From Escherichia coli (lineage in GTDB: Bacteria > Pseudomonadota > Gammaproteobacteria > Enterobacterales > Enterobacteriaceae), in assembly GCF_003334315.1 (NCBI RefSeq), contig NZ_QOWR01000014.1: a stretch of 64,000 nt of DNA, one strand, 5' to 3'. Below the pieces are notes generated by a model. It saw only the letters and a program-made list of their open reading frames with translations. It was not told where the DNA came from and ran no database searches. A program made the position numbers and the translations under genes. This document shows positions 1 through 33,905 of the stretch, in pieces; position 1 is the first letter of the stretch; each line of letters begins with the position of its first letter.

Positions 1-81
1 ACAGGTTCTACGTTTAGTTGCCGCGCTTTTATATGCGCTTGATTTACAACATCTTCTGGATAATTTTTACCAGAAAAATCA

Positions 82-846
82 CTAATTCTTTCGTTGCTCC
101 AGACGACGCAGAGAACGCTCACGGCGGCTCTCTTCACGACTTCTGTCGAGCAAAATTTCTTCGATAAAGGCCAGATGGCGATGCGATGCTTCGCGCGCTT
201 CTTCCGGCTTACCGGCCATAATCGCTTCAAATATGCGGGTGCGGTGACTACTCACCAGCGGCAGCATCTCGCGACGCGAATAGAGCAATTCGAAGTTCTG
301 GCGGACATTCTGGGCCAACATCGGCTCCATACACCTTAGCAGATGAAGCAGAACCACATTGTGGGCCGCTTCAGTGACAGCAATCTGATACTGGAGTACG
401 GCGTTTGATTCCGCGTCCAGATCGCCAGACTGCTGCGCCAGCTCTATGGCGTGGTGGAGTTCACGGATGCGTTCCTTGTCTTCATCGGTACTACGCAGCG
501 CGGCGTAATAAGCGGCGATACCTTCCAGGGCGTGTCGTGTTTCGAGCAAGTCATACTGTGACTCAGGATGGTCGGAGAGCAGCTCCACCAGCGGATCGCT
601 GAAGCTTTGCCATAGGCTGCTCTGGACAAAAGTGCCGCCACCCTGGCGACGAAGCAACAAGCCCTTCGCTTCGAGACGTTGAATCGCCTCACGCAAGGAG
701 GGACGGGAGACGTCAAACTGTTTTGCCAGTTCGCGTTCCGGTGGGAGTTTTTCGCCCGGGCGGAGAGTGCCTTCGAGGATCAAAAACTCCAGTTGCTGCT
801 CAATCACATCGGAGAGTTTTGGTTGGCGGATTTTGCTGTAGGCCAT
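82..846 (-). CDS. pdhR: Pyruvate dehydrogenase complex repressor PdhR (GntR family), 254 aa
   Basis: ORF 82..879 translation contains the PdhR sequence ([18 protein letters not shown]...); start trimmed to the internal ATG at 844-846 to give 254 aa. Confidence 0.93.
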
Positions 847-877
847 GAGTTCCTGTCTTAAGCCACTTGCCGAAGTC

Positions 878-894
878 AATTGGTCTTACCAATT
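878..894. promoter_or_regulatory. PdhR operator-like perfect palindrome AATTGGT-ctt-ACCAATT upstream of pdhR
   Basis: Read directly: aattggtcttaccaatt, 7-bp perfect arms around a 3-bp centre, 32-48 bp upstream of the pdhR start; matches the PdhR box consensus as I recall it. Confidence 0.7.
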
Positions 895-1386
895 TCATGT
901 CTGTGACGCTAAAGTAACAAAGTATTCACCTTATGTCCATACAGGTTTTGATTGAAATCATGAAACTGTGCACATTTTAACAACTTGACATATATAACGT
1001 TTCAAAGTTGTAACTATGCACAAATGTAGACTTTACGTAGGAAAGGAGTTTTTTAACGATTATTAAACTATAAAAATCCGAATTGAACCGATTCACTTAC
1101 CAATTTTGTGATTTTTAATTCAATTAAAACGAATTTAAATTCATTCTACATATTGAGAGGGATTGAGGCTGAGCTTTACAAACGGTTTCTTTTTAAGCAA
1201 CTCATCTTCAACCATGCATAAAGCGGGTGCATTCGCTGCCGCATACCATTATTCTTGATCTGACGGAAGTCTTTTTGTAACAATTCAAACTTCTTTGATG
1301 TAAACAAATTAATACAACAAACGGAATTGCAAACTTACACACGCATCACTGCGTAGATCAAAAAAACAACCACCGCACGAGGTTTC

Positions 1387-2760
1387 ATGATGGAAGGTCA
1401 ACAGCACGGCGAGCAGCTAAAGCGCGGCCTTAAAAACCGCCATATTCAGCTTATCGCGCTGGGTGGCGCGATAGGGACCGGGTTATTCCTGGGTAGCGCC
1501 TCCGTAATACAGTCCGCAGGGCCAGGGATTATCCTGGGTTACGCCATTGCTGGTTTTATCGCCTTTCTGATCATGCGTCAGCTGGGTGAAATGGTGGTCG
1601 AAGAACCTGTCGCAGGCTCCTTTAGCCACTTTGCTTATAAATACTGGGGCAGTTTTGCCGGTTTCGCCTCTGGCTGGAACTACTGGGTACTGTACGTTTT
1701 AGTTGCCATGGCTGAGCTGACTGCCGTGGGTAAATACATTCAGTTCTGGTATCCGGAAATCCCCACCTGGGTTTCTGCCGCCGTATTCTTTGTGGTGATT
1801 AACGCCATCAACCTGACCAACGTTAAAGTGTTTGGCGAGATGGAGTTCTGGTTTGCCATTATCAAAGTTATCGCGGTGGTCGCGATGATCATCTTCGGCG
1901 GCTGGCTGCTATTCAGTGGCAACGGCGGCCCGCAGGCGACCGTTAGCAACCTGTGGGATCAGGGTGGTTTCCTGCCGCACGGCTTCACCGGGCTGGTGAT
2001 GATGATGGCGATTATCATGTTCTCGTTCGGTGGTCTGGAACTGGTGGGGATCACCGCAGCAGAAGCTGATAACCCGGAGCAAAGTATACCGAAAGCAACT
2101 AACCAGGTTATCTACCGCATCCTGATTTTCTATATTGGTTCGTTAGCCGTTCTGCTCTCACTGATGCCGTGGACCCGCGTTACCGCCGATACCAGTCCGT
2201 TTGTGCTGATCTTCCACGAGTTAGGCGATACCTTTGTGGCGAATGCGCTGAACATCGTGGTACTGACTGCGGCGCTCTCCGTGTACAACAGCTGCGTATA
2301 TTGCAACAGCCGTATGCTGTTTGGTCTGGCACAACAGGGTAATGCGCCAAAAGCGCTGGCGTCTGTCGATAAACGTGGTGTACCAGTAAATACCATTCTG
2401 GTGTCTGCACTGGTAACGGCGTTGTGCGTACTGATTAACTACCTTGCCCCAGAGTCCGCTTTCGGACTGTTAATGGCGCTAGTGGTATCTGCACTGGTAA
2501 TCAACTGGGCGATGATTAGCCTGGCGCATATGAAATTCCGTCGCGCCAAGCAGGAACAAGGCGTGGTAACTCGCTTCCCTGCTCTGCTTTATCCGCTGGG
2601 TAACTGGATCTGCCTGCTGTTTATGGCGGCGGTACTGGTGATTATGCTGATGACCCCAGGAATGGCGATTTCGGTATACCTGATCCCGGTATGGCTGATC
2701 GTGTTAGGTATCGGCTATCTGTTTAAAGAGAAAACCGCCAAAGCCGTAAAAGCGCATTAA
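1387..2760 (+). CDS. aroP: Aromatic amino acid:H+ symporter AroP, 457 aa
   Basis: Full-length ORF (MMEGQQHGEQLKRGLKNRHIQLIALGGAIGTGLF...), APC-family permease, divergent from pdhR. Confidence 0.95.
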   Translation: MMEGQQHGEQLKRGLKNRHIQLIALGGAIGTGLFLGSASVIQSAGPGIILGYAIAGFIAFLIMRQLGEMVVEEPVAGSFSHFAYKYWGSFAGFASGWNYWVLYVLVAMAELTAVGKYIQFWYPEIPTWVSAAVFFVVINAINLTNVKVFGEMEFWFAIIKVIAVVAMIIFGGWLLFSGNGGPQATVSNLWDQGGFLPHGFTGLVMMMAIIMFSFGGLELVGITAAEADNPEQSIPKATNQVIYRILIFYIGSLAVLLSLMPWTRVTADTSPFVLIFHELGDTFVANALNIVVLTAALSVYNSCVYCNSRMLFGLAQQGNAPKALASVDKRGVPVNTILVSALVTALCVLINYLAPESAFGLLMALVVSALVINWAMISLAHMKFRRAKQEQGVVTRFPALLYPLGNWICLLFMAAVLVIMLMTPGMAISVYLIPVWLIVLGIGYLFKEKTAKAVKAH

Positions 2761-2769
2761 TCTCTCTAC

Positions 2770-2794
2770 GCCCTCACCCGTACAGGGTGAGGGC
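2770..2794 (+). terminator. Stem-loop after aroP, between convergent aroP and ampE
   Basis: gccctcaccc-gtaca-gggtgagggc, perfect 10-bp stem 10 nt past the aroP stop; weak downstream T-run. Confidence 0.55.
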
Positions 2795-2802
2795 AATAAT
2801 CT

Positions 2803-29772: not shown

Positions 29773-31525
29773 CTGTCCCCTCGCCTTGATTAATCACAAA
29801 TTCATTTTTATCGCCCGTTGTCAGCGCATCCGGCTCGATGTTCATGGTACGCAATACGCCGCCCATGATGGCACCAAAGACCGGCGCGGAAACGGCGCCG
29901 CCGTAGTATTTACCCGCCTGCGGATCGTTGATAACAACAACCAGCGCGAAGCGCGGCTGACTCGCAGGCGCAACGCCTGCGGTATAAGCAATATATTTAT
30001 TGATGTAGCGACCGTCCGGCCCGACCTTTTTCGCGGTACCGGTTTTAATGGCGATACGATAGCCTTTAATCGCCGCCTTCACGCCGCCGCCGCCTGGTAG
30101 CGCCACGCTTTCCATCATATGCACCACAGTGCGGACAATGGATTCCGGGAAGACACGTTCACCGGGAACCGGGGGGTCAACTTTGGTAATCGACAGTGGG
30201 CGATAAATGCCGTAGCTGCCGATAGTTGCGTAGACTCGCGCTAACTGTAATGGTGTTACCATTAGCCCGTAGCCGAAAGAGAAGGTGGCCCTCTCTATGT
30301 CAGACCACCGTTGTTTTTGAGGATATAAGCCACTGCGTTCTCCGACCAACCCCAAATTGGTCGCTTTTCCCAGTCCAAAACGTGAGTAAGTATCTACTAA
30401 CGCTGAGGACGGCATCGCTAACGCCAGCTTGGAAACACCGACGTTACTCGACTTCTGTAATACCCCGGTCAGGGTTAATTCGCTGTAGCGTGCCACGTCT
30501 TTGATTTCGTGGCCGTTAATTCGATAAGGAATGGTATTGAGTACCGAGTTTTCCCGCACCACGCCACGTTGCAACGCGGTCATTACCACCATCGGTTTAA
30601 CCGTTGAGCCCGGTTCAAACACGTCGGTGATGGTACGGTTACGCATCGCCTCTTTCGGCGTGCCGCTCAGATTGTTAGGGTTGTATGACGGGCTGTTAGC
30701 CATCGCCAGCACTTCACCGGTGTTGACATCCACCAGCACGGCGCTACCAGATTCAGCCTTGTTAAAGGCCACCGCGTTGTTCAGTTCGCGATAAACCAGC
30801 GCCTGCAGGCGTTCATCAATACTCAGCGCCAGGTTGTGCGCTGCCTGGCTGTCAGTAGAAGAAATATCTTCAATTACGCGACCATAGCGGTCTTTACGCA
30901 CAATGCGCTCACCCGGCTGCCCGGTAAGCCATTTATCGAAACTCTTCTCAACGCCCTCAATCCCTTGACTATCGACGTTAGTAAAGCCGATGAGGTGAGC
31001 AGTCACTTCGCCGGACGGATAGTAACGGCGAGACTCTTCACGCAGATGAATCCCCGGCAGTTTCAGTTTTTTGATGTAGTCCGCCATGTCAGGGTTCACC
31101 TGACGCGCCAGATAAATAAAGCGCCCTTTCGGGTTGGCGTTAATGCGGGCTGAAAGCTGATCCAGCGGAATATTGAGCGCGTTAGCCAGCGCCTTCCAGC
31201 GGTCACCGACGCTGATACCGCCAGCGTCATGCACTTCTTTCGGGTCAGCCCAAATCGCTTTTACCGGCACGCTCACCGCTAACGGGCGACCAGAACGGTC
31301 AGTAATCATGCCGCGGGAGGTGGAAACTTGCTGAACGCGAAGAGAACGCATGTCGCCCTCTTTCACCAGCATATCCGGGGAGATAACTTGTAACCACGCT
31401 ACGCGTCCGAGCAGAAAAGCCAGCGCCAGGAGAATACAGCCGCATAACAACGCAAAACGCCAACTGATAAAGTTGGCATGTTCTTCCTGACGTTTTGGTT
31501 TCTGCGTTTTCGCCGCTGCTTTCAT
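29759..31525 (-). CDS. ftsI: Septal peptidoglycan transpeptidase FtsI (PBP3), 588 aa
   Basis: Full-length ORF with STVK, SSN and KTG transpeptidase motifs. Confidence 0.96.
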
Positions 31526-33348: not shown

Positions 33349-33905
33349 TGAAAGGAGTTTACGGAGCTGAGGAAAAGCTTGTCAAGCCAGTCACAAGGCA
33401 TACCGAGGTAAAAAACCCGATGTTTACGGCTAATATCAGCGTTGTTTATTTTACGTCCAACGTGCGAAGCAAATTAACGTTATGAATAGCTGTAAGAAAA
33501 AATCCCTCATCGTCATCACTGTTTTAAAATGACTCACTATTTTCCACAGCAAATATAAAGTGTCAGTTTGCGACGCGAGCGGCATTTTAGGACATATCTT
33601 CCCCGGTTAACAGTCCTTGTTACGTCTGTGTGGCGCTTGATGCCAGCGGGTTTGCGCAAAAGCAAAGAAAAGTGTTTGTTAAATCGGCAATTCATCGCCG
33701 CATGTAACAAAATAATGCAAAAACGCGCTGTCGATATCACTTAATTATTGTGAATTTCAGCTGGTGAGTTAATTAACGGGCGGGTTTAAAAGCATTTATC
33801 AATAATAGTCAGGAATAGTCTTATTTACTTTAAGCATATTGATGTCCAGTCCCGTACTCTACGCGCCAGAGGGAAATTCACCTGGCGCGTATTTTTGTTC
33901 GCGGC

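Follow-up and report, generated by a model that had tools for sequence, protein, structure and literature searches.

The FadR, LldR and GlcC proteins, GntR regulators of the FadR subfamily, bind as winged-helix dimers to operators that are short palindromes with a GT-N-AC core, and a metabolite lowers their affinity for DNA. Compared with the PdhR box, these operators differ in arm sequence and effector, and each regulator has its own specificity. The PdhR operator of Ppdh in Escherichia coli K-12 is said to have been described by Quail and Guest in 1995. In a gSELEX survey, the pdhR operator gave the highest PdhR peak and was the only site with 14/14 consensus bases (Anzai et al., 2020; PMC7660256). 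The PdhR boxes of cyoA (AATTGGTataACCAATg), lldP (AATTGGccctACCAATT), grcA/yfiD, ndh, glcD and mraZ, and the one internal to ftsI, share with it the GGTnnnACC core, the AATTGGT-N3-ACCAATT symmetry and the regulator. However, these other boxes match the consensus at 7–13 of 14 positions, have a lower gSELEX signal and are placed differently relative to their promoters, and the perfect 14/14 palindrome occurs only at pdhR.

The aroP gene, which is divergently transcribed from pdhR, belongs to the TyrR regulon and has two TyrR sites downstream of its start. By the published definition, a strong TyrR box agrees with TGTAAA-N6-TTTACA at 10 or more of 12 positions and has the invariant G-N14-C. The paired TyrR boxes of tyrP, aroF and aroL each consist of a strong box (≥10/12) and a weak box 23 bp apart, with G-N14-C in both, and the same arrangement is found at aroP. 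Unlike those of tyrP, aroF and aroL, however, the aroP pair is located downstream of the start sites and, according to the literature, recruits RNA polymerase to the promoter P3 instead of acting by simple occlusion. In detail, TyrR, acting with aromatic amino acids, is described as bringing RNA polymerase to the divergent P3, and the overlapping P1 is thereby shut off.

The DNA studied here (the window) is a 64,000-nt stretch of an E. coli chromosome whose orientation is reversed relative to K-12; K-12 coordinates are obtained by subtracting the window position from 122938. Positions 1..2800 were matched in 5424 of 5426 genomes, among them many complete E. coli chromosomes with 100% identity. 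For the pdhR-aroP region in complete E. coli genomes, three matches are to plasmid-labelled records, which could be F-prime-type elements or mislabelled replicons. The K-12 MG1655 counterparts of the two genes are b0113 (pdhR, 122092..122856) and b0112 (aroP, 120178..121551). Between pdhR on the minus strand and aroP on the plus strand is a divergent spacer at 847..1386, which bears out the 540-bp region of the first-pass annotation. This spacer is AT-rich (35% G+C) and differs from that of the K-12-derived strain DH10B by 1 nt, which is outside the PdhR box (99.8% identity). The features of the locus are given in Table 1.

Table 1. Features of the pdhR-aroP locus, in window coordinates
Feature	Sequence	Position	Strand	Remarks
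pdhR CDS		82..846	minus	GntR/FadR-family pyruvate-sensing repressor; opens pdhR-aceEF-lpd; 100% identical to RefSeq-annotated pdhR
PdhR operator (PdhR box)	AATTGGTcttACCAATT	878..894	no strand	+11..+27 of pdhR transcript; K-12 122044..122060
pdhR transcription start site	A	904	minus	From string in PMC2759082
pdhR core promoter (putative -35/-10 assignment)		911..939	minus	-35 TGGACA (939..934), 17-nt spacer, extended -10 TGtTACTTT (919..911)
FNR site	TTGATtgaaATCAT	948..961	no strand	Centre at -50.5 from pdhR start site; highly conserved
Cra/FruR-like box (candidate)	TGAACCGATTCA	1084..1095	no strand	About -185 from pdhR start site; K-12 121843..121854
aroP divergent promoter P3		1243..1271	minus	-10 TGGTAT (1248..1243); overlaps aroP P1 on opposite strand
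TyrR strong box	TGTAAAcaaattAATACA	1299..1316	no strand	10/12 to consensus; G-N14-C present (G1300, C1315); K-12 121622..121639
TyrR weak box (predicted)	CGGAATtgcaaaCTTACA	1322..1339	no strand	8/12 to consensus; G-N14-C present (G1323, C1338); K-12 121599..121616
aroP CDS		1387..2760	plus	Aromatic amino acid:H+ symporter; RefSeq annotation under match

The palindrome at 878..894 is the textbook autoregulatory operator of PdhR, and as such it is already known. It is the same site as the K-12 Ppdh operator (K-12 122052 in PMC7660256, which is window position 886), with an identical 17-mer, the same distances to the ATG and the transcription start site (TSS), and the same flanks in the EMSA probe. 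The operator is listed in regulon databases and already serves as a part in pyruvate biosensors. Overall, we are all but certain that PdhR binds 878..894 as the operator of pdhR-aceEF-lpd, and that aroP is controlled independently via a strong and a weak TyrR box. The basis for this in our analysis is the uniqueness, top score, conservation and position of the box, and the evidence for PdhR binding and for the pyruvate response is from the literature. We found no evidence that contradicts the PdhR-operator reading.

The site AATTGGTCTTACCAATT at 878..894 has two 7-bp arms, AATTGGT and ACCAATT, which are perfectly complementary and flank a 3-nt spacer, and it is located 31 nt upstream of the pdhR ATG. 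Its sequence and coordinates are exactly those given in the first-pass annotation, which had described a 17-bp site with perfect 7-bp arms. It agrees with the palindromic consensus AATTGGTnnnACCAATT, whose core is GGTnnnACC, at all 14 specified positions. The box is the sole instance of ATTGGTNNNACCAAT without mismatch in the 64 kb, and the 17-mer consensus AATTGGTNNNACCAATT with up to one mismatch was found once, against 0.02 matches expected per window. To score the site independently of itself, we built a PdhR matrix from the 27 other gSELEX sites in Table 1 of Anzai et al. (2020; PMC7660256), leaving out 878..894. The box scored 21.76 bits of a maximum of 23.0, the best among 63,984 window positions, so the weak or absent matrix score that could have spoken against the annotation was not seen. 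The second-best score in the window was 16.9 bits, for a site within ftsI. None of 5000 dinucleotide-preserving shuffles of the divergent spacer attained the score of the box. The site thus confirms that this operator can be recognised from sequence alone.

For a survey across species, the PdhR protein was scanned against one genome per species, and 80 loci were fetched. These include loci from Escherichia, Salmonella, Citrobacter, Kluyvera, Klebsiella, Raoultella, Enterobacter, Lelliottia, Kosakonia, Pluralibacter, Shimwellia and Serratia, and aroP is the divergent neighbour of pdhR in every fetched locus that extends that far. None of the 14 specified bases of the box varies among the 80 fetched loci, the K-12 locus and the window, and the 3-nt spacer occurs in five forms (CTT, CAT, CTG, ATG and AAT) across the fetched loci. 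In 78 of the 80 fetched loci, the box is 30–33 nt away from the pdhR ATG. In a MAFFT alignment of the 79 distinct divergent spacers, the columns of the arms are 100% conserved and those of the 3-nt spacer about 90%. Among complete E. coli genomes, the 31-mer at 871..901 was found in 5408 of 5426, with at least 99% identity in 5401. Given that the arms are invariant and the 3-nt spacer is free, with no compensatory changes, the pattern is that of a DNA palindrome contacted by protein and not that of an RNA stem. Invariant arms around a free spacer, seen here in about 80 species, may serve as a positive-control signature that separates protein-bound palindromes from RNA stems.

The pdhR TSS was mapped by 5′RACE to an A that is 58 nt upstream of the ATG, in agreement with earlier mapping (Olvera et al., 2009; PMC2759082). 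The promoter string printed in that study, GTATGGACATAAGGTGAATACTTTGTTACTTTAGCGTCA, is the reverse complement of window positions 904..942, with the TSS as its last A. Thus, +1 corresponds to window position 904 and the PdhR box to +11..+27. The first-pass annotation had placed the box just upstream of pdhR; this holds for the coding sequence but not for the transcript, since the box is an operator in the transcribed leader. The -35 and -10 elements in Table 1 are putative assignments made from the published TSS and the sequence. Positions 905..935 are about 100% conserved across the 79 sequences. A simple scan of 800..1450 for sigma-70 promoters and terminators made no calls, and we consider it uninformative because the mapped promoters in this region are all poor matches to the consensus. 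The pdhR promoter was indeed described as having “poor sigma-70 elements” (Olvera et al., 2009; PMC2759082), which fits the missing call.

Direct binding of PdhR to this site has been documented repeatedly. Göhler et al. (2011) used an EMSA probe, “PdhRop” (GCCGAAGTCAATTGGTCTTACCAATTTCATGTCTGTG), with exactly the sequence of window positions 869..905, and reported an 11.6-fold enrichment of the pdhR operator by PdhR ChIP-qPCR. Binding of PdhR at the pdhR promoter (PpdhR) was reported in one more published EMSA. In a biosensor preprint, the distance from +1 to the PdhR box is 11 bp, and the box confers control by PdhR and pyruvate when grafted onto unrelated constitutive promoters. The pdhR peak in gSELEX was 9,234 with PdhR alone and 9,889 with 1 mM pyruvate, whereas most other PdhR sites fall (PMC7660256). 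The missing pyruvate-dependent drop goes against the simple expectation and probably reflects saturation of the strongest site.

Given an operator just downstream of the TSS and the published binding of PdhR, we infer negative autoregulation of pdhR-aceEF-lpd that is relieved by pyruvate. Autoregulation of this operon had been proposed in the first-pass annotation, and the 14/14 consensus match, the best matrix score, the invariant arms and the published binding support it. In the mechanism that we propose, a dimer of PdhR, encoded immediately downstream, would bind both 7-bp arms (AATTGGT and ACCAATT) and, sitting on +11..+27, would block productive transcription of pdhR and the pyruvate dehydrogenase genes. 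Judged only by the +11..+27 position, the blocked step may be RNA polymerase binding, open-complex formation or promoter escape, or PdhR may act as a roadblock. As pyruvate accumulates, pyruvate-bound PdhR would lose affinity for DNA, as described in the literature, and the operon would be derepressed. Such a negative autoregulatory loop would match the capacity of pyruvate dehydrogenase to the supply of pyruvate. At the other end of the divergent spacer, control of aroP would be exerted by TyrR on 1299..1316 and 1322..1339, downstream of the aroP start sites.

We considered other explanations for the palindrome. That it arose by chance in AT-rich intergenic DNA and has no function is suggested only by the composition of the divergent spacer (35% G+C). 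The probability of this is practically nil: no shuffle attains the score of the box (0/5000), and the invariance of the arms across genera and the published direct binding already refute the idea. Alternatively, the palindrome could act mainly as RNA, with the 7-bp hairpin in the pdhR leader controlling mRNA stability or translation and with protein–DNA binding being secondary. The minimum-free-energy fold of the leader does include the palindrome hairpin. However, this fold is no more stable than those of shuffled sequences (z = -0.04, with 88 of 200 shuffles at least as stable), and an Rfam search of 700..1500 with E-values up to 1 returned no match. An RNA stem also fits poorly with arms that are unchanged in 80 loci, where compensatory pairs are absent and the loop is variable, and with the finding in the biosensor preprint that the box still gives PdhR/pyruvate control after being moved to foreign promoters. 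We therefore regard a primarily RNA-based function as extremely unlikely; there is a slim chance that the palindrome additionally serves as an RNA hairpin in the leader.

A further explanation is that the site is shared, with PdhR on 878..894 controlling the divergent aroP as well. The box is located in the divergent spacer and belongs to the gSELEX “type A” sites, which are upstream of both genes (PMC7660256). On the other hand, about 350–400 bp separate it from the cluster of aroP promoters (P3 -10, 1243..1248; TyrR boxes, 1299..1339), with a poorly conserved AT-rich stretch in between. Moreover, the pdhR and aroP ends are parted by an island of about 4.6 kb in approximately 1060 E. coli genomes, with both regulatory ends kept, and none of the papers that we consulted describes PdhR control of aroP. 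Sharing of the site thus seems very unlikely, and we retain the reading of 878..894 as the operator of pdhR-aceEF-lpd, with separate control of aroP by TyrR.

For TyrR, matches to the consensus were counted across the whole window. With up to two mismatches there was one match (1299..1316) against 1.95 expected, which is not above chance, and with up to three mismatches there were 12 against 21 expected. As the mismatch count was not above chance, we replaced it by a TyrR matrix in combination with conservation. The matrix was built from 12 non-aroP K-12 boxes of tyrP, aroF, aroL, aroG, mtr and tyrR. The sequence tgtaaacaaattaataca (1299..1316), with 10/12 matches and G-N14-C, is a strong box by the published definition and starts 88 bp upstream of the aroP ATG. 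It scored 18.57 bits and ranked first of 63,983 positions, with the runner-up at 11.3 bits, and its score was attained by 15 of 5000 shuffles of the divergent spacer. The GTAAA and TACA of this box are about 100% conserved, and G-N14-C is present in 79/79 sequences.

The partner of the strong box is predicted to be CGGAATTGCAAACTTACA at 1322..1339, which is on the aroP side of the strong box at a centre-to-centre distance of 23 bp. Its matrix score of 6.81 bits (rank 15 of 63,983) does not by itself set it apart from background, as a match of at least 6.81 bits is present in 72% of the shuffles of the divergent spacer. At a given position of the shuffled spacer, the chance of such a score is 0.0024. 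We assigned the box by its conservation and by its constant distance from the strong box: 73 of 79 sequences have a box scoring 5 bits or more at +21..+24 from the strong box, compared with 2 of 79 at the mirror offsets, and the G-N14-C of the weak box is kept in 75 of 79 orthologous sequences. In the deletion series of PMC7142922 (Paniagua-type constructs), the weak box is farther from P3 than the strong box. We also scored TGCAAACTTACACACGCA at 1328..1345 (7/12) as a candidate weak box; it has -4.4 bits (rank 1211), and 1322..1339 is preferred.

The first-pass annotation had noted imperfect TyrR-like motifs near 1276..1316. Its example TGTAAACAAATTAATACA (1299..1316) held up, as it is ranked first by the matrix, far above background, and is conserved; 1276..1293 did not, being unconserved and scoring no better than background. 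It is very improbable that tgtaacaattcaaacttc at 1276..1293, upstream of the strong box, is the second TyrR box. Its left half, TGTAAC, matches the consensus at 5 of 6 positions and it is 23 bp from the strong box, but its right half matches at 0 of 6 and it does not have G-N14-C, since position 17 is not a C. The matrix gives it -9.6 bits (rank 4521, background), and conservation at 1276..1296 is among the lowest in the divergent spacer and the lowest in its aroP-proximal region. A box of at least 5 bits is on this side in only 2/79 sequences versus 73/79 on the aroP side, and the deletion series (PMC7142922) puts the weak box distal to the strong box relative to P3. The placement of the second aroP TyrR box is thus corrected to 1322..1339.

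The region of 1276..1293 may have a different role. The P3 -10 sequence, TGGTAT, is from PMC7142922, and we tentatively placed the P3 -35 (GACTTC) at 1271..1266 by a 17-nt spacing. Positions 1243..1256 are conserved in the 79-sequence alignment. According to a figure legend in PMC7142922, in which coordinates are not printed, the P3 UP element overlaps the P2 -10. Based on the P3 -10 and the placed -35, 1276..1293 would be within this P3 UP element/P2 -10 area.

Lineages differ in what separates the two regulatory ends. Approximately 1060 of 5424 complete E. coli genomes, including ST131 and CFT073, align only to 847..1027 or 847..1036 of the divergent spacer. In one such genome (locus L089, 7191..11974), an island of about 4.6 kb is located between pdhR and aroP and encodes usp (annotated as tssD), four bacteriocin-immunity genes and three hypothetical ORFs. 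This island is the known PAIusp (PMC7142922). The insertion region corresponds to about 1037..1216 in the window. The flank with the PdhR operator is 98% identical to the window, and the aroP flank (1217..1386, with both TyrR boxes) is 76% identical.

In Superficieibacter sp. 1612_C1 (locus L056, 1542..2686), the spacer between pdhR and aroP is about 2 kb long and has a decayed usp remnant. Two ORFs of this remnant match Usp residues 1–185 (76%) and 224–386 (78%); the spacer is too short to accommodate the C-terminal nuclease part or the immunity genes. In the Klebsiella and Raoultella loci (L032, L064 and L068–L074), about 110 additional bp separate the aroP start codon from the TyrR boxes, which puts the strong TyrR box at -188..-199 instead of the usual position of about -85. 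In Raoultella, the strong box has a TACG end in place of TACA.

The conserved block on the pdhR side of the divergent spacer reaches to about 1036. Over 940..1036, the part of this block that covers about 100 bp ahead of the pdhR core promoter, conservation is 90–100% across genera from Escherichia to Serratia; some of it can be attributed to the FNR site at 948..961. An FNR ChIP-seq peak at 121,987 was reported, with a site at -50.5 for pdhR-aceEF-lpdA (Myers, 2013; PMC3688515), and the centre of the FNR site at window position 954.5 corresponds to K-12 121983.5. We considered the CRP-like sequence TGTGCacatttTAACA at 967..982 (centre at -70.5) and left it unassigned, as the CRP site of Kim (2018) is class II and overlaps the -35. 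An inverted repeat, ACAACTT/AAGTTGT, occurs at 978..984 and 1005..1011, and the conserved stretch at 985..1036 begins with a perfect TTGACA on the plus strand (985..990).

Further upstream, the Cra/FruR-like box has one mismatch to TGAAWCGWTTCA; with 0.73 such matches expected per window, it is not significant alone. Nevertheless, a Cra-like box with at most one mismatch is found in 71 of the 79 distinct enterobacterial spacers, in poorly conserved surroundings, and the best Cra-like match is 237–241 bp from the pdhR ATG in 74 of 79 sequences. The box is also kept in the strain with PAIusp (L089 position 7239). Cra was reported to repress pdhR-aceEF-lpd from a site “downstream of two promoters” (Kim, 2018), which has no obvious fit to 1084..1095. 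There is a slim chance that the control of pdhR has inputs beyond the textbook PdhR, FNR and CRP, through the Cra-like box at 1084..1095 and the block at 985..1036, both of which are kept across genera, from Escherichia to Serratia.

The 11-bp sequence CTTACCAATTT forms a perfect direct repeat at 885..895 and 1096..1106, with the copies 211 bp apart. We asked whether the copy at 1096..1106 could be another PdhR half-site that supports looping and rejected this, as its left arm matches at 1 of 7 positions and its columns are unconserved across genera. Being a lone and unconserved half-site, this copy is probably due to chance.

Other PdhR sites are present elsewhere in the window. The sequence TAATGGTGTTACCATTA at 30248..30264 in ftsI, which has the second-best PdhR matrix score, is a gSELEX “type D” intragenic PdhR site at K-12 92682 (PMC7660256). 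Göhler et al. (2011) used the probe “MraZop” for a weak PdhR site that precedes mraZ and the dcw cluster of cell-division genes, and 33363..33406 on the minus strand is an exact copy of it. With the sites at pdhR, ftsI and mraZ all present, the window carries three published PdhR targets.
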